From Escherichia coli (GTDB lineage: Bacteria > Pseudomonadota > Gammaproteobacteria > Enterobacterales > Enterobacteriaceae), in NCBI RefSeq assembly GCF_024298765.1, contig NZ_CP101210.1: DNA of 64,000 nucleotides; one strand, written 5' to 3'. Position numbers and translations under genes: made by a program. The number at the start of each line of letters is the position of its first letter. Within the stretch, counting starts at the first letter, position 1. The notes below the pieces were generated by a model. It saw only the letters and a program-made list of their open reading frames with translations, searched no databases and was not told the DNA's origin. Shown here one piece after another: positions 1 to 53,528 of this stretch.

Positions 1-208
1 GGATAATTTTAAAATAACCCCACTCTTCAGCATGGACGCCGAACAACTGCAGGAGCTGACCGCCCCAACGGGTAAATTCACCTGTGACAGCCCAAAAGGT
101 GCCAGTGATGCCAAAATAGTAAGTGGAGAGAATACCCGCCGCGATGACCGCGGGGATGGGCGCCCAGAATTTAATCAACCAGGCGTGTTTGAATTGCTGC
201 CATGACAT
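1..208 (-). CDS. yedE: YedE-like inner membrane transporter, N-terminal part (gene continues beyond window start)
   Basis: Reverse-strand translation from ATG at 206-208 reads MSWQQFKHAWLIKFWAPIPAVIAAGILSTYYFGITG..., a hydrophobic N-terminus matching the K-12 gene divergent from yedD. Confidence 0.55.
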   Translation of the reverse strand, partial: MSWQQFKHAWLIKFWAPIPAVIAAGILSTYYFGITGTFWAVTGEFTRWGGQLLQLFGVHAEEWGYFKII

Positions 209-391
209 GAATGTAGCCTCTGAACTCAGAAGGTTTGAAACAAGAGTCGCGAATCATACACCATGCAAATTTATTTTCGGGGTAATAATTCACAAAAATA
301 ATGGTTAGATCAAATTTCTCTCTGAACCTGGAAAGGCTGGCGACATCAGGGCTTTAATGCCACAATCCTCTTTTCTTCTCATGCAGGACGA

Positions 392-15960: not shown

Positions 15961-16047
15961 GCCCGGATGGTGGAATCGGTAGACACAAGGGATTTAAAAT
16001 CCCTCGGCGTTCGCGCTGTGCGGGTTCAAGTCCCGCTCCGGGTACCA
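15961..16047 (+). tRNA. leuZ: tRNA-Leu, long variable arm; integration target of the prophage
   Basis: 87-nt sequence gcccggatggtggaatcggtagac...tccgggtacca; its 3' half is duplicated at 53405-53459. Confidence 0.9.
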
Positions 16048-16116
16048 TGGGAAAGATAAGAATAAAATCAAAGCAATAAGCAGTGTCGTGAAACCACCTT
16101 CGGGTGGTTTTTTTGT
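15993..16116 (+). repeat. attL: 124-bp direct repeat (3' half of leuZ plus downstream terminator)
   Basis: Identical by eye to 53405-53528; includes the leuZ terminator hairpin gaaaccaccttcgggtggttttttt. Confidence 0.85.
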
Positions 16117-16588
16117 ATTTGTATTTTGAGCAATGGCGGTAGAGTGGCGGTGGTGTGGCGATATGCAGAAACAATAATGGTGGTGCACGTGCTGTTTAAG
16201 CTCTAAGGATGAAGCAGAATTCTCCTGCAGCTCCTCCGTATTTCGCATAGTGAACCAAGACTTCGGTTAAACAAAATTTTTCTGGGATTTTTCCACTCGA
16301 CTTCATTTTTCCTCCAGTCATCCACCAAAGGTACCTGCGCTAATCTATCTTTTTTAATCTGACAACATCCTGAGAAAAGGCAAATTCGTCAGATTTACTG
16401 TTTTTTCTGCTGCTTCGAATGCCGATGTCTGCAGTACTGATAAGAGCTCTATCTCTTTGATATAGATCTTTTTTTTGATGAATTGCTCGACATATTATCG
16501 TTATGACACCTTCTTGTTAAAGGTGTTGTACTCCACATCTCGATTTTATGATGTGGGTTATGATTGGTTAGTAATAGAGTGTATCGGT

Positions 16589-16870
16589 ATGCGATGTGGT
16601 TTATTAATGGCAATATGCTTTTGTTTGGTATCTTTTAGTGGGTATGCAGCAACAGGAAAGTCTGATGTTCAGATCAAGAAAGAAATAATTAAAGAATCCA
16701 TTGAATCATATCCAGGCAATTGTGCGTGTCCTTATAATCATGCAAGGAATGGTAGTAGGTGTGGTGGACGCAGTGCATATAGCCGTACTGGAGGGTATGA
16801 TGTGGTATGTTATGAGAGTGATGTTACTGATGAAATGATCCGGCAATGGAAGCAGGAGAATGCTGATTAA
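16589..16870 (+). CDS. Hypothetical secreted cysteine-rich small protein (prophage moron)
   Basis: Signal peptide MRCGLLMAICFCLVSFSGYA followed by a Cys-rich mature region (GNCACPYNH...RCGG...VVCYESD); AT-rich. ORF finder extends it to 16475. Confidence 0.4.
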   Translation: MRCGLLMAICFCLVSFSGYAATGKSDVQIKKEIIKESIESYPGNCACPYNHARNGSRCGGRSAYSRTGGYDVVCYESDVTDEMIRQWKQENAD

Positions 16871-17061
16871 TTACTTTTGACTGGTTTGTTTTGCGAGCAT
16901 TATGTGTGTTGTTAACGGTACCCTAGCTAAGTGAGAGTTCCAAAATAAAACCCGCAGTTTTTACGCTGCGGGTTTTATTGTTTCTGTCGATGGGATAGGG
17001 TGCCACTTCGGCCAGCCTTGGCAACCGATTGACGGGGGATTACTCCCCCGTCGCGGTTTCC

Positions 17062-17202
17062 TTACTGCTTACACTGTAAGAACGCCGCAAACTCCGCTCC
17101 CCAGAAGCTCATCCGTATTTCACACAGCGAACCGTGCAGCATCCAGATGATGAGGATTACCGTCACGCAGAACGTGATGGCCGTAAGCGATTTTTGCGAC
17201 AT
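17062..17202 (-). CDS. Hok/Gef-family type I toxin-like small membrane peptide
   Basis: 46-aa translation MSQKSLTAITFCVTVILIIWMLHGSLCEIRMSFWGAEFAAFLQCKQ: TM helix followed by SLCEIR and E(F/V)AAF, the Hok family pattern. Confidence 0.55.
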   Translation of the reverse strand: MSQKSLTAITFCVTVILIIWMLHGSLCEIRMSFWGAEFAAFLQCKQ

Positions 17203-17383
17203 AGCGCTTGCTCCTTTTTAGGGGAGGCGCTAACCTATCACTTGCTAAGGTTAGATGGTTAGGGCCTCGGTTAAACAGAGATGTTTTCCGGGGCCTTTCC
17301 ACATCTGGCCTTCGGGCATACCCTCCGACCATCAGCCGAAAGGCACCCGCGCGTAATCTATCGTTTTTTTGTTGCTTCGGCAA
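17120..17383 (-). CDS. Mok-like overlapping reading frame (translational coupling frame for the hok-like gene)
   Basis: 87-aa ORF overlapping the hok-like gene in another frame, as in hok/mok/sok loci. Confidence 0.3.
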   Translation of the reverse strand: MPKQQKNDRLRAGAFRLMVGGYARRPDVERPRKTSLFNRGPNHLTLASDRLAPPLKRSKRYVAKIAYGHHVLRDGNPHHLDAARFAV

Positions 17384-17392
17384 TTCTGCTCG

Positions 17393-17653
17393 TTAATTCT
17401 GAGGTAAAGGCAAACTCATCTGATTGTTTCCCCTGTGTGACGTTGGCAGTTCATGCCACGGGATACCTTCTGAAGATCGAACGCCTGAGGTGTGTTTCGA
17501 TGTGAATTTATGGAAAGCTTCCAGTGTTGAGAAGCATACGCCGCATTCCAGGTTGTTACACTGGTAATACTTTTGTCGGACGGTGTTTGAATCATTTTCC
17601 GGACGACTTGTGCGGATACGGGCAGATGCGCCACAAAGCGGACAACGGAACAT
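17393..17653 (-). CDS. ogr: Ogr/Delta-family zinc-finger late-gene transcription activator
   Basis: MFRCPLCGASARIRTSRP...YYQCNNLECGVCFSTLE: Cys4 pattern and N-terminus resemble P2 Ogr. Confidence 0.8.
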   Translation of the reverse strand: MFRCPLCGASARIRTSRPENDSNTVRQKYYQCNNLECGVCFSTLEAFHKFTSKHTSGVRSSEGIPWHELPTSHRGNNQMSLPLPQN

Positions 17654-17896
17654 AGCAACCTCCCTTTAGGTGGTGCTATTCTAAACTTCATCAATGCAGA
17701 TTCCAACTCCTTCCCACTTTAAGCGAAGGATGGTGATAAAGTCAGAATATGTTAGATGAAGTCTAAACGGGCGATAAGTTTTCCAATATTTGAATAACAA
17801 CGTGGCAGGATTTTTGTTTATCAATTATCTTACACTTTTAAGTGTAATAAATTTGTTAGTGATGACAATATTGTGAGAGGAGATTATCAATTGAAG

Positions 17897-19360
17897 ATGG
17901 CAAAAAATAACAATGATAAAATGCGGGCAAAGTATAGGCCGTTCATAAATATATGGGAACATCTTCCTTCTGAGTTCAATGAACTCATCAAGACGTTAAT
18001 GGTGCTGATACGGCAAGGGGAAAATGTGGGAGCTCAGCAAAGGGAGCTTGATTCCATCGAAAACTTCAAACACCTGTTAAGTGGATGGAAGCGGGCGCAA
18101 AGGATCATAGCTGATGAACTCATTATCAGGCTTTCTCAAATCAAGGATCTGGAGTTAGAAAAGAATTGTGCCCATTCAAAAAAGGACTATGAAACAAAGA
18201 AGAAGTGTATACGCAATATTGAAAGGACTAGACTAGAAATTAGGATTTTACGTAGGTGCATTGATTCAATTGTATGGGCGATATTCCGCAATGAACACTC
18301 GTCTATAAGACGGTTACCTATAAATAGAAATACTGACAATCTGACAATATTTAATATACATGATTCAATGGTGGTAGCAGATGAAATCAATGCTGATCCG
18401 ATGGCTATAGCTGTTATCACTGATATTACTACGTTTGTACATACTGGTGATTTACTTGCGTTAATACCTCAGCAAGGCATAACTTTAATTGAAATAAAAA
18501 GTGGTAAGAAAAATATAGAGTTTTCAAAGGCGGCTATGTTCTCAGTGCAAAGTAAATGTCTTCATTTTGATGAGATTTATAGAAAAGACCTTGATAAAAA
18601 TGACTTGAAACACTATGACAGAGCTAAGCGTCAACTTAAAAGAGCTCAAAATGTGATAGATGTCATTGAAACTGGTAAGGGATTTGATAACTTTTTTCAG
18701 TCTCAAGTAACAATTCATGACAGAGATTTTTGTCCCGATTTTTATACAGATAAGATTATTGAGCTTTGGTATGAGATATATAACGGTAAAACTTGGGCGA
18801 TTACTGACATTAATGATTGTTTATTCCTTGGGGCATATATTAATTCTAATATGGGTTTTTGCGGTTTTAATGGATGGATGGAGGTATCTAGAATATCGGG
18901 GAGAGTGTTTAATATTCTTGATAGCTTTTCAGATGCTTTATCACGTCCATTTTTTAGTTTGAACCTACCTGATAAATTGCTTCTGGATATCATTAATGGC
19001 AATCTAATTGTTGTGCTGTGTTTCGATCATCGTCGTTTCGTAGAAAGAGCAAATAAAAAATACCCCGGGATTTATGAGTTATTGGACTTTCCATCTCCGA
19101 AGATTAATCCTATGAGTATGCTTTCCATCAATGGGAAGGGGGTAGTTTCTAGTGTTGATGGACAGAGTGTTTTTATTGGAAATGGTTACGAAACACGGAT
19201 TATTTTTGATCAGCAATATCCAGATAGTCTGATTAAGTGGTCATACCATATGAGTGATCTCAAAAAAAATATTGATAAAAAAAAGCGTAAAATGAAAAAG
19301 GAAACGCAAAGAAAAATAAAAGAGAAAAGAAAACGTAGCAGAAAACAATGCTTAAACTAA
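17897..19360 (+). CDS. Hypothetical 487-aa protein, AT-rich orphan moron between ogr and gpD (candidate accessory or defence gene)
   Basis: Long ORF in a very AT-rich island; RBS GAGAGGA upstream of ATG 17897 (ORF finder starts at GTG 17873); possible PD-(D/E)xK-like motif GD...EIK; Lys/Arg-rich C-terminus. Confidence 0.55.
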   Translation: MAKNNNDKMRAKYRPFINIWEHLPSEFNELIKTLMVLIRQGENVGAQQRELDSIENFKHLLSGWKRAQRIIADELIIRLSQIKDLELEKNCAHSKKDYETKKKCIRNIERTRLEIRILRRCIDSIVWAIFRNEHSSIRRLPINRNTDNLTIFNIHDSMVVADEINADPMAIAVITDITTFVHTGDLLALIPQQGITLIEIKSGKKNIEFSKAAMFSVQSKCLHFDEIYRKDLDKNDLKHYDRAKRQLKRAQNVIDVIETGKGFDNFFQSQVTIHDRDFCPDFYTDKIIELWYEIYNGKTWAITDINDCLFLGAYINSNMGFCGFNGWMEVSRISGRVFNILDSFSDALSRPFFSLNLPDKLLLDIINGNLIVVLCFDHRRFVERANKKYPGIYELLDFPSPKINPMSMLSINGKGVVSSVDGQSVFIGNGYETRIIFDQQYPDSLIKWSYHMSDLKKNIDKKKRKMKKETQRKIKEKRKRSRKQCLN

Positions 19361-19490
19361 CACATCTAATGCTTTAATTTGCTTTACTGTTACAATGTCC
19401 GCTTACTGGTACAGGGCGGACTGCCATATTAGATTTGGTTCTATCTCGTAAGAGTGGCCGTTCAGGTCTGCACTAATACATCTGAATGGT

Positions 19491-42870: not shown

Positions 42871-42909
42871 AATTGTGCAAATTTGTGCACTATTGTGCAT
42901 TTGTATAGT
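42871..42909 (+). promoter_or_regulatory. Iterated TTGTGCA repeats and candidate -10 (TATAGT) upstream of the cargo operon
   Basis: aaTTGTGCAaatTTGTGCActaTTGTGCAtttgTATAGTg: three copies at about 10-11 bp spacing followed by a -10-like hexamer. Confidence 0.4.
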
Positions 42910-42978
42910 GAAAAAAATATAGCAGAAAGTATACTTAGCGCCTTGTGGGCTACGTTAACTTTGCAGGAACATTTGGAA

Positions 42979-44358
42979 ATGAAAAAAATCAATAAAGAAG
43001 ATTCTAAAAGAACCTTTTTACGTGGATGGTTGCGATTTCTTCGTAGCGTTGAGAGAGCTAAGAAAAAAAAGCCTGCGCAAGAGAAAAATGGTAGTCTTCG
43101 TTTTTCCGATGAAACAACTCCTGTCCAAAACCAAGTCGCTACGTTCATTGAAAATATATCGATTATAAAAGAGTATGACTCATCAATTCTTCGTCGTGAC
43201 GCAGAGAAGATATTAATACCTAAATATTTTGACTTATATGACAATCCAGAGAAATCTCTGCTATTTATTAGTGCAGCCACAAAATTAATTGCAAGAGGTA
43301 AATGGAAATCATATATTTTTGATTACAAGAAAAACAAAAAACACTGTCTTGGTCTTGAGTGTCTATTAGGTGTTGCTCTTACAGCAGCAAGGCAAAGTAA
43401 TATAAATTTCAAAGATACGATGATTCAGATTAATGGTATCTACCCTAAAGATGAACAGTATCTTGAAATTATCAGGGATGTCGGGCTTGTAAAAGAGATT
43501 AGTAATGCTGCACCAGGTAAAGTTCTGGACTCTACTGAAGCATCGAAAAAAGCGAATCCGAAGAAACGAATCTTCTCTGCTGATAGTATCGGAAAGGAGA
43601 ATGCTTCTGCCTTTGCCCATGACAGAAAAAATGTCACTGCTGAAAAATTTACCGCATACATAAACGAATGCTTAAATGATCATAATTTAAAACTTGTACA
43701 TGAGGCAGAAAAGCATTTAACTTCCTGCATGGGGGAACTCCTTGATAATGCGGAGCGGCATTGTGGGTTAGAGCAACGCCCACGCTGGTATTTGAGAGGT
43801 TTTGTTAATAATAACGTACGAAACCCCATATGTGAGTTGGCTGTTTTCAATTTTGGGAAAACTATCAGCGAAACTTTTGATAATTTACCTGAGGATCATT
43901 TTTCATTAAGTCAACAAGTTAATCCATACATAAATAAGCATATTAAGAAAAAGGGTATGTTTAAGGAAGGATTAACAACAGTAGCGGCCTTGCAAGGGCG
44001 GGTGAGTTGTAAAAACGAGAAAGAAACTGACAGTTCTGGCACCGGAACAATTGAATTATTGAAGTTATTTCAAGATATGCATGATAATCTTAAAAAAATG
44101 GGAAGAGATATTAAAGGTGGGATAAAAATGACTTTAATATCTGGTAGTACTCATATTAACTTTGATGGATCATATAAATTAAAGCAAAGGTTGGTTAATG
44201 ACGAGGAAAGTGACATTTTTACTTACCCTTTTAATGATGTAGGGCTTGAATCTGAACCGGATCGCAACTATCTTAAGCGTATGAAGGATGCTCGATTTCC
44301 TGGAGTTATGATCAATATTCGTTTTCCTCTACCAGAAAACGCCACCCAGCGAACTTGA
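42979..44358 (+). CDS. Hypothetical protein with C-terminal GHKL-type (histidine kinase/SpoIIAB-like) ATPase domain; candidate defence gene A
   Basis: N-box-like ELLDNAERH, G-box-like DSSGTGTIELL, terminal GG...G...FPLP typical of HATPase_c; AT-rich; RBS AGGAAC before ATG 42979 (ORF finder starts at 42883). Confidence 0.55.
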   Translation: MKKINKEDSKRTFLRGWLRFLRSVERAKKKKPAQEKNGSLRFSDETTPVQNQVATFIENISIIKEYDSSILRRDAEKILIPKYFDLYDNPEKSLLFISAATKLIARGKWKSYIFDYKKNKKHCLGLECLLGVALTAARQSNINFKDTMIQINGIYPKDEQYLEIIRDVGLVKEISNAAPGKVLDSTEASKKANPKKRIFSADSIGKENASAFAHDRKNVTAEKFTAYINECLNDHNLKLVHEAEKHLTSCMGELLDNAERHCGLEQRPRWYLRGFVNNNVRNPICELAVFNFGKTISETFDNLPEDHFSLSQQVNPYINKHIKKKGMFKEGLTTVAALQGRVSCKNEKETDSSGTGTIELLKLFQDMHDNLKKMGRDIKGGIKMTLISGSTHINFDGSYKLKQRLVNDEESDIFTYPFNDVGLESEPDRNYLKRMKDARFPGVMINIRFPLPENATQRT

Positions 44359-44368
44359 GGACAGGTAC

Positions 44369-44713
44369 ATGAAAATGGCTGACATCACCATAGATTTCAA
44401 TAAGTTAGTAAAAGATAGTAACAAGAAACTTTTTGCTGGACGTTCTAATGGGCGCCAGGCCTATGATTACTTTAATATAGGGAAATTTTGCACAACCAGT
44501 AATGATAGATTATATCTATTGATCCCCAAGGGAATTGTTGTATCAAGCTCATACTTTCTAGGTATGCTTGAAACGGTTTTGCCGAAATTTTCTTCGCCTA
44601 GCGAATTTTATAGTCGCACTGTACTTGATGGTCGTGAATATAAAGAAGGTATGCTTTCTGAATTAGATAGAGCTGTAAGGAGAGGCTTACATAAAAATGT
44701 TCCCTTCTTTTAA
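44369..44713 (+). CDS. Small protein, possibly STAS/anti-sigma-antagonist-like; candidate defence gene B
   Basis: 114 aa immediately after the ATPase gene; IVVSSSYFLGMLE resembles the STAS core; very tentative. Confidence 0.4.
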   Translation: MKMADITIDFNKLVKDSNKKLFAGRSNGRQAYDYFNIGKFCTTSNDRLYLLIPKGIVVSSSYFLGMLETVLPKFSSPSEFYSRTVLDGREYKEGMLSELDRAVRRGLHKNVPFF

Positions 44714-45506
44714 AAATATTTTTCAAATCAAAATGACAGCGCTGTCTGTCATTTTTTTTATATTCCCCGCAGCTTGCTCTGTGACAGATTTTTCCAATAA
44801 AGAAAACATTGAATGTAATGAGTCACTTTATCCAAACACGCCTTTTTATATTTCCGATTCAGGACTTAGTGGTATATCATCACCGTTTTTGTTATCCGGA
44901 AACCCGAATGATGGCTTGATGTTTTGTGAAAAGGCAAACGACACCTTTCATAAGTTATCTCTGGCAAGGGATAACAAAAAAGATTTATTTACTAATTATT
45001 TCAAAGATGTTCCAAATTCCTATGATATATATAATATTGTAAAGGTTCCGGAAAATGGTCCAGAGTGGATTTCTATTGGCATCTCTTTATTTGCTTTAGT
45101 TTCATCCTTTGTTATTCCTTGTGTTCAACATAGAAAAGAACGTAAAGAAGCTATTAATGAAGGGTATTGGGTAAGAGAAGTAATTATGCCTAAAATTAAT
45201 GGGTTGGCATTCGATGTTGTGCAAAGTTTTAAAAACTCCATGGCATTATCAGAAGAGGAGTTTCTTAGTGTATTCAGTAATACTCTTTTACCAAAACTAG
45301 GAGAGTTACGGGATTCATTATATTTGTTTAATAGTTTTCCAGAATTAAATGCAGATATTGAAAATCTAGAAAGTATTTGTGACTCCTTGGAGGAAGAAGT
45401 TTCCAATCATATAGACTCGCCTAATGAAATAAGAATTTCTGATATATCAATGTTTCATTCCAAATTAATACAGAAATTAATTTTACTTCATAAGAAGATA
45501 GGTTGA
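44697..45506 (+). CDS. Membrane-anchored protein; candidate defence gene C (possible effector)
   Basis: Overlaps gene B by 17 nt; hydrophobic N-terminus (MTALSVIFFIFPAACS) and a central TM helix (WISIGISLFALVSSFVIPCV). Confidence 0.45.
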   Translation: MFPSFKNIFQIKMTALSVIFFIFPAACSVTDFSNKENIECNESLYPNTPFYISDSGLSGISSPFLLSGNPNDGLMFCEKANDTFHKLSLARDNKKDLFTNYFKDVPNSYDIYNIVKVPENGPEWISIGISLFALVSSFVIPCVQHRKERKEAINEGYWVREVIMPKINGLAFDVVQSFKNSMALSEEEFLSVFSNTLLPKLGELRDSLYLFNSFPELNADIENLESICDSLEEEVSNHIDSPNEIRISDISMFHSKLIQKLILLHKKIG

Positions 45507-52296: not shown

Positions 52297-53298
52297 ATGT
52301 CGGTTCGTAAGATTCCATCAGGTAAATGGCTTTGCGAATGTTATCCCTACGGAGCATCGGGAAAACGCATTCGTAAACAGTTTGCGACAAAAAGTGAGGC
52401 GCTCTCTTATGAGCGCCGTTTAATGAATAGTAGAGTTGGAGACGAGTTTCAAGATGGTTCTGGTCCTCGTCTTTCTGAGTTGATTGCTCGTTGGTTTGAG
52501 ATGTACGGCAAAACCTTGTCCTCTGGTGCAGAGCGCAAAGTCAAACTTGAGGCGATTTGTTCTAGGCTGGGAGATCCATTTGCTTCTCAGTTTGACAAAA
52601 ATATGTTTGCTACTTATCGGGAAAGAAGGCTATCAGGAGAATGGAATCCCAAGGGGAAGAAAAAACTTAGTGAAGCAACCGTTAATCGCGAGCAGTCATA
52701 TCTACATGCTGTTTTTGCCGAACTGAAGCGCCTTGGGGAGTGGTCTGGTGAAAACCCCCTGACTGGAATTCGCAAGTTTCGTGAGGAAGAAAAGGAGCTG
52801 GCGTTTCTGTATGTAGATGAGATTGAACGCCTTTTGATTGCGTGTGATGAGTCACGGAATAAAGATTTGGGGGTTGTTGTCCGTATTGGGCTTGCGACTG
52901 GTGCTCGGTGGAGTGAAGCAGAAGGATTAAAGCAATCTCAAGTACTGCCCGGTCGAATCACATTTGTTAAAACTAAAGGAAAGAAGAACCGCACTGTACC
53001 GATTTCACCTCAATTGCAGGCTATGCTTCCTAAAAAACGAGGAGCGCTATTTTCACCATGTTATGAGGCTTTTGACGCTGCAATTAAGAGAGCGAAGATA
53101 GAGCTCCCTGATGGGCAATTAACTCATGTGCTACGTCACACGTTTGCTAGTCATTTTATGATGCGGGGCGGAAATATTCTTGTGTTGCAAAAAATACTGG
53201 GGCATAGCGATATAAAAATGACTATGCGTTATGCGCATTTTGCTCCGGGTCATTTAGAGGCTGCTGTTGAATTAAACCCTTTTGACAATAGAGGGTAA
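52297..53298 (+). CDS. int: Tyrosine integrase (P2/186 family)
   Basis: 333 aa with catalytic motifs ...RHTFASHF... and HSDIKMTMRYAHF; next to attR. Confidence 0.9.
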   Translation: MSVRKIPSGKWLCECYPYGASGKRIRKQFATKSEALSYERRLMNSRVGDEFQDGSGPRLSELIARWFEMYGKTLSSGAERKVKLEAICSRLGDPFASQFDKNMFATYRERRLSGEWNPKGKKKLSEATVNREQSYLHAVFAELKRLGEWSGENPLTGIRKFREEEKELAFLYVDEIERLLIACDESRNKDLGVVVRIGLATGARWSEAEGLKQSQVLPGRITFVKTKGKKNRTVPISPQLQAMLPKKRGALFSPCYEAFDAAIKRAKIELPDGQLTHVLRHTFASHFMMRGGNILVLQKILGHSDIKMTMRYAHFAPGHLEAAVELNPFDNRG

Positions 53299-53404: not shown

Positions 53405-53528
53405 TTTAAAATCCCTCGGCGTTCGCGCTGTGCGGGTTCAAGTCCCGCTCCGGGTACCATGGGAAAGATAAGAATAAAATCAAAGCAATAAGCAGTGTCG
53501 TGAAACCACCTTCGGGTGGTTTTTTTGT
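53405..53528 (+). repeat. attR: 124-bp direct repeat (partial 3' leuZ copy plus terminator)
   Basis: Identical by eye to 15993-16116. Confidence 0.85.

Follow-up and report, generated by a model that had tools for sequence, protein, structure and literature searches.

The right end of a P2-like prophage in Escherichia coli very probably carries a complete and probably active hok/sok-type type I toxin-antitoxin cassette, where it forms accessory cargo of a P88-like element, with ogr on one side and the right attachment site on the other. The window analysed is a 64,000-nt stretch of contig NZ_CP101210.1 (assembly GCF_024298765.1), and all positions refer to it. Our model of the locus is based on toxin homology and on how far the RNA helices, sok promoter, and Sok hairpin are conserved and covary; from these we infer the transcript ends, processing, action of Sok, and biological role. 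The cassette is real but already known, and it is ordinary in that roughly one complete E. coli genome in five has it annotated (a PGAP “Hok/Gef family protein” adjoins ogr in ~1180 of 5426) and it has been catalogued. Its toxin gene and prophage landmarks are as follows.

15993–16116, plus strand: prophage junction repeat, comprising the 3′ part of tRNA-Leu leuZ and 3′ETS-leuZ (repeat search).
17062–17202, minus strand: CDS of the 46-aa hok toxin, a member of Hok cluster 72 in Escalera-Maurer et al. (ORF, Pfam, PHROG, PGAP, catalogue).
17393–17653, minus strand: ogr/Delta-like zinc-finger late activator at the right end of the P2-like prophage (NCBIfam PRK09678, E = 3.4e-11; phrog_603; PGAP).

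The prophage is 37 kb long, P88-like (Xuanwuvirus), and integrated in the tRNA-Leu gene leuZ. Its P2-like character is indicated by the ~124-bp direct repeats of tRNA sequence that bound it (15993–16116 and 53405–53528), an integrase-sized ORF (52297–53298) beside the second repeat copy, the ogr gene, and the P2-family capsid, terminase, sheath, tube, and D genes annotated in a near-identical prophage. The cassette lies ~950 bp inside the prophage end with ogr directly upstream on the minus strand, and extra cargo flanks it on both sides (16589–16870 and 17873–19360). The first-pass annotation had placed the locus inside the prophage next to ogr and stated that K-12 lacks it at this position; both statements agree with our results, as K-12 runs from leuZ straight to yecA with no prophage between them.

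The 46-aa ORF, MSQKSLTAITFCVTVILIIWMLHGSLCEIRMSFWGAEFAAFLQCKQ, reads on the minus strand from 17202 to 17062. It combines a hydrophobic stretch (residues ~7–23) with SLCEIR (25–30) and EFAAF (37–41), the layout of transmembrane helix and motifs that had earlier been taken as a Hok/Gef pattern, and the family searches confirm that assignment. Pfam PF01848 (HOK_GEF) matches with E = 4.3e-7 over model positions 5–42 of 42, phrog_251 matches with E = 2.5e-23 over positions 2–49 of 50, and BLASTP against R1 Hok gives a significant alignment (39% identity over 31 aa, E = 2e-7). PGAP names the protein “Hok/Gef family protein” (WP_000078920.1); phrog_251 carries the name of MokW/HokW. All Hok residues with >80% conservation in the family logo (C16, T18, L30, C31, E32, and E41) have counterparts at a constant offset of −4 (C12, T14, L26, C27, E28, and E37), and C12, T14, L26, E28, and E37 are invariant in an alignment with Hok R1 and HokB/C/D/E. 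Matches to NCBIfam HokA (NF007290, E = 6e-9, 35.8 bits vs. a curated cut-off of 89) and to the NCBIfam Hok subfamily (NF007279, E = 3.5e-5, 23.6 bits vs. 73) score below the cut-offs, and the peptide is thus classed as a family member only, not as a HokA orthologue. Judged by homology, the ORF is a genuine Hok/Gef-family type I toxin gene, and among 72 distinct sequences with a locatable hok start it has its full or near-full length (46–48 aa) in 70.

An identical peptide appears as entry 1628 of Hok cluster 72 in the alignment of the 2026 Hok catalogue (bioRxiv 10.1101/2025.08.07.668861). The toxicity panel described in that preprint includes two cluster-72 constructs, 72_1621 and 72_1589, and reports 42 of 45 constructs as toxic; the three that it names as non-toxic are other constructs. 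Construct 72_1621 differs from the present peptide by V15A, and the toxicity reported for it is that of a variant expressed from a foreign promoter, not at the present locus (bioRxiv 10.1101/2025.08.07.668861). A literature search for hok in P2-like phages or P88 returned nothing specific.

The hok transcription unit on the minus strand has the following candidate elements, with mRNA positions counted from the predicted transcription start.

17355–17383, minus strand: hok promoter, −35 TTGCCG (17383–17378), 17-nt spacer, −10 TAGATT (17360–17355) (read from sequence).
16942–17348, minus strand: predicted full-length hok mRNA, ~407 nt, with 5′ end GGGUGCC at 17348 and 3′ end past the terminator (Rfam, fold).
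17334–17348, minus strand: tac-like 5′ element, +1 to +15, GGGUGCCUUUCGGCU, partner of fbi or, after 3′ trimming, of +49 to +59 (folds).
17290–17300, minus strand: ucb-like box, +49 to +59, GGAAAGGCCCC, alternative partner of tac (truncated-mRNA fold).
17265–17268, minus strand: GAGG, +81 to +84, homologue of the mok Shine-Dalgarno in R1, with no start codon after it (Rfam alignment).
17244–17263, minus strand: putative Sok target in the hok leader, +86 to +105 (hypervariability, folds).
17203–17230, minus strand: hok Shine-Dalgarno AAGGAG (17216–17211) in a local hairpin, GCGCCUCC...GGAGCAAGCGC, upstream of the AUG (fold).
17030–17053, minus strand: hairpin right after the hok stop codon, predicted to form the 3′ end of the processed mRNA and to protect it (folds).
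16998–17013, minus strand: fbi-like element, GGCCGAAGUGGCACCC, partner of the mRNA 5′ end (minimum-free-energy fold).
16942–16979, either strand: bidirectional intrinsic terminator, ending both the hok mRNA and the plus-strand gene 16589–16870 (scan, fold).

The hok promoter begins 9 nt past the ogr stop codon, and both of its hexamers and their spacing are kept in P2-like and lambdoid copies. A consensus promoter and terminator scan of the region passed over both the hok and the sok promoter, which agree with the consensus at 8 and 6 of 12 positions, respectively, and so fall short of the scan threshold of 9 of 12; conservation was therefore relied on instead. The predicted mRNA 5′ end (17348) is 7 nt downstream of the hok −10 hexamer. 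It coincides with the start of a match to Rfam RF01794 on the hok-sense strand (17348–17214), which covers the full model length at 42.7 bits (E ~ 1e-7), below the gathering threshold of 59. This model is named “sok” and represents the hok mRNA leader in sense orientation, as the control match to an R1-type plasmid locus (87.2 bits) shows; a reading of the match as a wrong-strand sok was rejected on that ground. Homology with the lambdoid copies covers 17369–16998.

The full-length hok mRNA is predicted to fold at −177.5 kcal/mol (z = −7.0) with its 5′ and 3′ ends paired, the tac and fbi elements forming 15 bp with one bulge between 17348–17334 and 17013–16998 in the minimum-free-energy structure. 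Across 66 distinct loci, 92.1% of cells in the alignment are paired; controls with slid partners give 38–44%. Double changes are seen in 28 pairs. The relatives were gathered by an exact 5′ pattern of 17 nt covering tac, so that covariation on the tac side is unobservable in this set. The tac/fbi helices are paired in 97.8% and 91.3% of cases, with the fbi side varying solely by wobble-compatible changes. In two relatives whose fbi region is cut in our alignment A1 (L010 and L011), a separate alignment of the copies revealed a 5′ deletion and a corresponding change in its 3′ partner.

When the 3′ end of the mRNA is truncated, the predicted fold switches to a tac/ucb stem; this helix is 99.2% paired in the 66 sequences but invariant, without covariation, and the alternative structure as a whole is 91% paired across relatives. 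The Sok target has the highest entropy in the leader (32 distinct 20-mers among the 66 sequences). The truncated fold puts it in a hairpin loop; in the full-length fold it is sequestered by long-range pairing with the 3′ UTR, a helix with five compensatory pairs. The hok Shine-Dalgarno stays paired in both predicted conformers; its hairpin helices are paired in 100% and 93% of the 66 sequences, with variants such as CCUCCCC/AAAGGAG vs. CUCUCC/AGGAGA in the alignment. The post-stop hairpin is 99.2% paired and carries compensatory changes in four of its nine pairs.

The plus strand of the same leader contains a candidate antisense gene.

17208–17236, plus strand: sok promoter, −35 TTGCTC (17208–17213), 17-nt spacer, −10 TAACCT (17231–17236) (read from sequence).
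17243–17300, plus strand: Sok-like RNA, ~58 nt, with predicted ends, comprising a 13-nt single-stranded 5′ tail, a hairpin (17261–17297), and then UUUCC (fold).

The sok promoter is weak by consensus, and its −35 hexamer shares bases with the complement of the hok Shine-Dalgarno. The arrangement of TTGnnn, 17–18 nt, and then TAACCT (65 loci) or TAATCT (one locus) nevertheless holds in all 66 distinct relatives; this conservation could also stem from the overlapping constraints of the hok Shine-Dalgarno and its hairpin. The RNA is predicted to fold at −24.5 kcal/mol (z = −3.5), and the base of its hairpin, GGCCUCGG/CCGGGGCC, is similar to the hairpin base of annotated sokC in K-12. The 32 variants in the region corresponding to the Sok 5′ end fit what would be expected of antisense specificity. 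A Sok-like antisense RNA on the plus strand had been anticipated at 17280–17400; the candidate promoter and RNA are on that strand but ~70 nt from that location. A similar adjustment applies to the extent of the locus, earlier given as 17062–17460. The module occupies 17383–16998, extended to 16942 by the terminator; the earlier interval contains the hok ORF and overlaps the 3′ end of ogr, but misses the 3′ UTR, the fbi element, and the terminator.

By homology with hok/sok of plasmid R1, we propose that the ~407-nt hok mRNA would start at 17348, and that pairing of its first 15 nt with fbi (17013–16998) would yield a closed fold that sequesters both the Sok target and the ribosome-binding site of hok. 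Slow 3′ trimming to the post-stop hairpin (17053–17030) would leave a processed form of ~320 nt and remove fbi, and the freed 5′ end would then pair with +49 to +59. This would release GAGGC (+81 to +85) to pair with GCCUC (+121 to +125), presenting the Sok target in the loop between them. A short, constitutive Sok RNA (~17243–17300) would bind the exposed target, and no Hok would be made. Should the supply of Sok stop, through loss of the element, a block in transcription, or prophage induction, the 46-aa Hok would be expected to enter the inner membrane and kill or lyse the cell.

The closest known relatives of the cassette are in phages. In phage P88 (Xuanwuvirus, Peduoviridae), the hok gene SF19_gp52 encodes an identical 46-aa peptide, and its cassette has the same location, flanked by ogr/D and the end of the phage. 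Along its full length the present cassette is 92–94% identical at the nucleotide level to the copies in P88 and other Peduoviridae, and 93.5% identical to that of P88 itself, with no essential difference. Among E. coli lysogens, 14EC001 matched the 471-bp cassette query at 100% identity, and EPEC E2348/69 is another lysogen with the cassette. More distant copies occur in Stx and other lambdoid phages, including the second hok locus of Sp5/VT2-Sakai (cluster 72_1589), which adjoins lom and tail-fibre genes. These are ~81% identical at the nucleotide level from 21 nt upstream of the transcript start to the end of fbi, and their Hok is also 46 aa long with the same ends, whereas the phage family, flanks, Sok-target sequence, and terminator differ.

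Likeness to R1 hok/mok/sok extends to the tac–fbi pairing, the alternative tac–ucb stem, a dcb-like GAGG/CCUC hairpin that displays the Sok target, the post-stop hairpin, and a predicted antisense RNA of ~60 nt with its −35 hexamer over the complement of the hok Shine-Dalgarno. The toxins are of one family (39% identity over the core), but R1 Hok has 52 aa and ends in ...AYESGK, while the present Hok has 46 aa and ends in ...AAFLQCKQ. The leader is also shorter here, with the hok AUG at +147 rather than at +169 as in the R1-type plasmid locus, and the element resides in a prophage instead of on a plasmid. The K-12 hokC/mokC/sokC locus is homologous in its Sok hairpin base and overall layout, but it is chromosomal, encodes a protein with 27% identity to the present Hok, and has an IS186 interruption nearby. 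A further prophage-borne system, hokW-sokW of Sp5, has been shown experimentally to work as a toxin and antitoxin and to take part in phage release, as described by Takada et al. (2021, PMC8621323). We rejected it as a studied homologue of the present locus, as the primers and sequence show hokW to be a different gene for a 51-aa gef/HokD-like peptide (MKQQKAM...YESEK; sequence 35_712) with 26% identity to the present Hok; results for hokW-sokW are therefore not simply transferable.

The hok leader is also crossed by a longer frame, which the first-pass annotation had proposed to be mok.

17120–17383, minus strand: 87-aa overlapping ORF (ORF list; judged not a conserved element).

This ORF exists, but its TTG start (17383–17381) is the first three bases of the hok −35 hexamer and precedes the predicted transcription start by 34 nt. 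In P88 and other relatives with an identical Hok, the frame is closed until +105 and lacks a start codon; a one-base difference in the Sok-target region of the present copy happens to open it. An ORF with a canonical start that crosses the hok Shine-Dalgarno is present in 26 of the 66 distinct relatives and absent in every frame from the other 40, and an AUG behind the conserved GAGG was found in 0 of 66 loci. The same test recovered mok in both positive controls, the R1-type plasmid locus, with an ATG 7–8 nt after GAGG, and K-12 hokC, whose annotated mok has an ATG 57 nt upstream in frame. None of the candidates tried here (the 87-aa ORF, ATG +17, ATG +45, GTG +47, and near-cognate codons 7 nt past GAGG) was conserved. 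Comparison of the relatives thus indicates that this hok subfamily, unlike R1, has no conserved mok leader ORF.

The locus might still work as a canonical hok/mok/sok system, with a mok ORF that starts at GTG 17302 (+47, behind GAAGG) or ATG 17332 (+17), is translated across the ribosome-binding site of hok, and is needed to make Hok as in R1, although we regard this as unlikely. The frame is open here from upstream of +1 to +229 and includes both in-transcript starts, and the internal GTG could give a 61-aa mok-like ORF in the present variant. Translation of R1 Hok requires that of mok up to the hok Shine-Dalgarno (PMC9841398), and a translating mok ribosome could open the predicted pairing at that site; some crossing ORF does occur in the 26 relatives noted above. 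The 40 relatives without one, however, include P88 and others with an identical Hok, single-base indels in the Sok-target region freely shift the mok frame, the start at +45 to +47 is inside the stable tac stem-loop, and the conserved GAGG is not followed by an AUG as it is in the R1-type and hokC loci. With no conserved mok, hok translation would probably be gated by RNA refolding itself and by Sok-triggered decay. As a tentative extension, the P2-like and lambdoid loci of cluster 72 may form a naturally mok-less branch, a possibility that we rate somewhat below even. GAGG would then be an RNA switch element only and not a ribosome-binding site; once released by the tac/ucb stem, it would capture CCUC, the anti-Shine-Dalgarno, and thereby uncover the hok ribosome-binding site directly, and Sok would act by duplex formation and decay rather than by blocking mok.

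Chromosomal hok copies are often inactive, and the cassette could be a decayed or silent relic of the kind seen at several K-12 chromosomal hok loci, with an intact ORF that is unexpressed or unregulated and passively carried by the prophage. The weak promoters by consensus (8/12 and 6/12), the lack of a conserved mok, and the scores under the curated family thresholds would suit such a relic. We consider it very unlikely, given that cluster-72 peptides are reported as toxic in the catalogue's panel, that hok is intact in nearly all distinct copies, and that P2-like and lambdoid phages at only 73–94% nucleotide identity retain both alternative RNA structures together with the sok promoter and hairpins, with compensatory changes. 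The diversification moreover centres on the Sok-target region, as would be expected if specificity were under selection. For a functional cassette of this kind, the most likely role is a benefit to the prophage, either through stabilisation (addiction) or through help with lysis on induction as for hokW-sokW; our data do not separate the two.

A different role for an active cassette would be defence of the lysogen against other phages through abortive infection or exclusion. P2-like prophages carry defence genes, and hok genes are ~four-fold enriched in prophages, both of which would be in keeping with such a role, as would the lowered plating of T4 reported for R1 hok/sok on a high-copy plasmid (as cited in PMC8621323). 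Yet hok genes are described as not enriched beside defence systems in the catalogue study (bioRxiv 10.1101/2025.08.07.668861), no PADLOC model matched Hok or the neighbouring cargo genes, and the sole prophage-borne hok/sok studied experimentally, hokW-sokW of Sp5, is reported to have promoted release of its own phage. Defence is accordingly an improbable role in our assessment, and stabilisation or lysis help is preferred.

The discovery value of the locus is small, as the gene is named by the NCBI pipeline, its Hok cluster is catalogued with representatives reported as toxic, and the phage genus is known. For annotation, the analysis supplies the true extent of the module (16942–17383, on both strands), places the predicted Sok RNA and both candidate promoters, and warns that the long overlapping frame should not be labelled mok. 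The locus is of interest to specialists in type I toxin-antitoxin systems as a member of a phage-borne subfamily with the whole R1-style RNA switch but without a conserved mok. If confirmed, this would mean that not every member of the hok family couples its translation to mok.

The position of the toxin locus was read from its surroundings. A group of three tRNA genes for Gly, Cys and Leu, known in K-12 as glyW-cysT-leuZ, extends to 16047. The DNA between two copies of a junction repeat forms a P2-like prophage of about 37 kb; E. coli O111:H8 has a copy that is 99.9% identical to it, in which P2-family genes for capsid, terminase, sheath, tube, D and ogr are annotated. K-12 has leuZ directly joined to yecA at the same site. 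Because the repeats bound a P2-like prophage, ogr adjoins the hok promoter and K-12 runs from leuZ into yecA, the first-pass annotation was correct in placing the locus inside a prophage, next to ogr, where K-12 lacks it. The repeat contains the 3' part of leuZ and the stretch annotated in K-12 as the 3'ETS-leuZ sRNA; it is unusually long and takes in that whole sRNA region, so that the lysogen carries the sequence of this sponge sRNA twice, at about 16048-16114 and 53460-53526.

Features of the hok cassette and its prophage (window coordinates)
15993-16116, second copy 53405-53528 adjoining an integrase-sized ORF: junction repeat, about 124 bp
16475-16870 (PGAP start about 16589), plus strand: gene for a small Cys-rich protein, between the attachment site and hok
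17202 to 17062, minus strand: hok ORF, 46 aa, MSQKSLTAITFCVTVILIIWMLHGSLCEIRMSFWGAEFAAFLQCKQ
17208-17213 and 17231-17236, plus strand: predicted sok promoter, -35 TTGCTC and -10 TAACCT, 17-nt spacer
17383-17378 and 17360-17355, minus strand: conserved hok promoter, -35 TTGCCG and -10 TAGATT, 17-nt spacer
17653 to 17393, minus strand: ogr, ending 9 nt ahead of the hok promoter
17873-19360, plus strand: orphan ORF, 495 aa, inside an AT-rich insertion between ogr and gpD
42883-44358 and 44697-45506, plus strand: a pair of ORFs (491 and 269 aa) separating the portal/terminase genes from the large replication gene

A Hok/Sok interpretation of the locus is supported by its sequence and by predicted RNA folds. 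The 46-aa ORF and an overlapping 87-aa frame (17383 to 17120) both lie on the minus strand as first claimed, and every sequence test confirmed Hok/Gef membership for the shorter one. It matches Pfam PF01848 over model positions 5-42 of 42 (E = 4.3e-7) and PHROG 251, "MokW-like host killing" (E = 2.5e-23), shares 39% identity with plasmid R1 Hok across the conserved core, and has all residues conserved in >80% of 1264 Hok peptides (C16, T18, L30, C31, E32 and E41) at a constant offset of -4. Scores against the NCBIfam HokA and Hok models (E = 6e-9 and 3.5e-5) are far under the curated cut-offs, which makes the peptide a family member and not a HokA orthologue.

The implied novelty of the locus did not hold up, as the element is of a known kind and the exact peptide is already catalogued (entry 1628, cluster 72, in the alignment of Escalera-Maurer et al., bioRxiv 10.1101/2025.08.07.668861). 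The toxicity panel of that study includes constructs 72_1621, one residue different from the window peptide, and 72_1589; only three constructs, all others, are named non-toxic. The same authors report four-fold enrichment of hok in prophages. Among 5426 complete E. coli genomes, about 1180 have a PGAP "Hok/Gef family protein" beside ogr, and 1750 genomes contain the cassette in some form. It also occurs, at 92-94% identity, in phage P88 and other Peduoviridae, where its annotation reads "MokW-like host killing". Stx and other lambdoid phages have a copy about 81% identical; the homology covers 16998-17369, exactly from the promoter to fbi, the 3' UTR partner of the mRNA 5' element tac. Some viral contigs have tandem cluster-72 cassettes 450-720 bp apart with differing Sok-target sequences (L086, 4318 and 5040; L103, 5545 and 6000).

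Cassette copies were aligned, 11 diverse ones first and then 66 distinct ones. Their mRNA 5' end, starting at 17348 (+1), reads GGGUGCCUUUCGGCUGA and is invariant among aligned copies; relatives were gathered with an exact 17-nt pattern at this end, so 5'-side variation was excluded by design. For the predicted full-length transcript (17348 to 16941, 408 nt) the fold energy is -177.5 kcal/mol (z = -7.0), and nucleotides +1 to +15 pair with GGCCGAAGUGGCACCC at 17013-16998, the equivalent of the R1 tac/fbi lock. In the predicted fold of an RNA truncated behind the stop-codon hairpin (17053-17030), the 5' end switches to +49 to +59 (tac/ucb, the alternative pairing); GAGGC (+81 to +85) is then joined to GCCUC (+121 to +125), with the Sok-complementary region in the loop. 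The hok Shine-Dalgarno sequence is paired in both predicted conformers; one possibility for the last activation step is that released GAGGC would compete for the CCUC anti-Shine-Dalgarno, directly freeing the ribosome-binding site.

Across the 66 sequences, 92.1% of cells in the full-length structure are paired, vs. 38-44% with partners slid, and 28 pairs have two-sided changes. Pairing reaches 97.8% and 91.3% in the tac/fbi helices and 99.2% in the post-stop hairpin, where four pairs are compensatory; five compensatory pairs occur in the long-range helix that joins the Sok-target region to the 3' UTR. For the truncated structure the figure is 91%, and 99.2% for its tac stem, which is invariant. 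Two relatives found by BLAST (L010, L011) have a one-base deletion at the 5' end and a correspondingly altered 3' element.

Rfam RF01794 matches the hok-sense strand from 17348, exactly the mRNA start, to 17214 (42.7 bits, E~1e-7; the gathering score of 59 is not reached), and on an R1-type plasmid control it covers the hok leader in sense orientation, ending at the hok AUG (87.2 bits). Although named "sok antitoxin (CssrC)", the model represents the hok mRNA leader (+1 to the hok AUG, sense) and not antisense Sok, so strand calls made from it need care; its sense-strand matches are 17214-17348 (minus) in the window and 182-353 (plus) in comparison sequence L134.

A Sok RNA is strongly predicted at about 17243-17300 (plus), with a 13-nt single-stranded tail, a -24.5 kcal/mol hairpin and then UUUCC; the site first proposed, 17280-17400, lies about 70 nt too far right. 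At its base the hairpin is similar to the one of annotated K-12 sokC, and, as in R1, the sok -35 overlaps the complement of the hok Shine-Dalgarno sequence. The promoter matches consensus weakly (6/12) and went unreported by a generic promoter scan; its pattern occurs in 66/66 distinct relatives. Within the leader, variation is highest in the Sok 5' region (32 different 20-mers among the 66), the pattern expected if every copy has private antisense specificity.

The proposal that the 87-aa frame is mok was not sustained. Its first codon, TTG, belongs to the -35 hexamer and precedes the transcript by 34 nt, so the frame is not translatable as such; within the transcript the window copy offers ATG (+17) and GTG (+47). 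The frame is not conserved among relatives: P88 and several other copies with an identical Hok differ by one base in the Sok-target region, which shuts the frame until +105 and leaves no start codon in it. In 40 of the 66 distinct relatives, no frame has an ATG/GTG/TTG ORF that begins inside the transcript and extends to the hok Shine-Dalgarno, and none of the 66 has a start codon 7-8 nt past the conserved GAGG (+81 to +84), the aligned counterpart of the R1 mok Shine-Dalgarno sequence. Applied to two controls, the script recovered the known mok start in the R1-type plasmid locus (ATG +112, after GAGG) and the annotated mokC in K-12 hokC (ATG -57). The authors of the Hok catalogue say that they were unable to predict Mok reliably (bioRxiv 10.1101/2025.08.07.668861). 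Given these absences, the closed frame in P88 and the working controls, the alignments indicate that mok is not a conserved component of this phage-borne Hok subfamily, and the window's 87-aa frame is open by chance, though possibly used in this copy.

The cassette has several neighbours. The small Cys-rich protein has a signal-peptide-like N-terminus (…NCACPYNHARNGSRCGGRSAYSRTGG…) and matches phrog_27544 (unknown function, E=3e-59); its gene shares a bidirectional terminator with hok and is absent in a related prophage (L007), where hok is about 360 nt from tRNA-Leu. The AT-rich insertion (17700-19480, 1.8 kb) has 33-39% GC vs. 50-55% in its flanks. Only 20 of the 5426 complete E. coli genomes contain it, with its 495-aa ORF, at 99% identity or above, and P88 does not have it. 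Pfam, PHROGs, PADLOC, NCBIfam and PDB sequences gave no match to the ORF, a possible accessory or defence gene, as yet uncharacterised. The 491- and 269-aa ORFs sit where P2 has its tin/old accessory hotspot; they have no PADLOC match and, among PHROGs, only a weak one to phrog_3364 (unknown function).

Candidate roles are addiction to the prophage, lysis help on induction and exclusion of other phages. We rank the first two jointly as most likely because of the R1 paradigm and the experimental study of hokW-sokW in Stx2 phage Sp5, a system that assists phage release (PMC8621323). As hokW is a different gene (51-aa, gef-like, 26% identical to the window Hok), that role is a lead and not evidence for this locus. 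Sp5 has a second, cluster-72 cassette beside lom (about 1486-1875 of the VT2-Sakai/Sp5 sequence L004, unannotated in the GenBank record), distinct from hokW-sokW and therefore left in place by hokW deletion studies. The one mildly new point is that a phage-borne Hok subfamily keeps a complete predicted R1-style RNA switch without a conserved mok.
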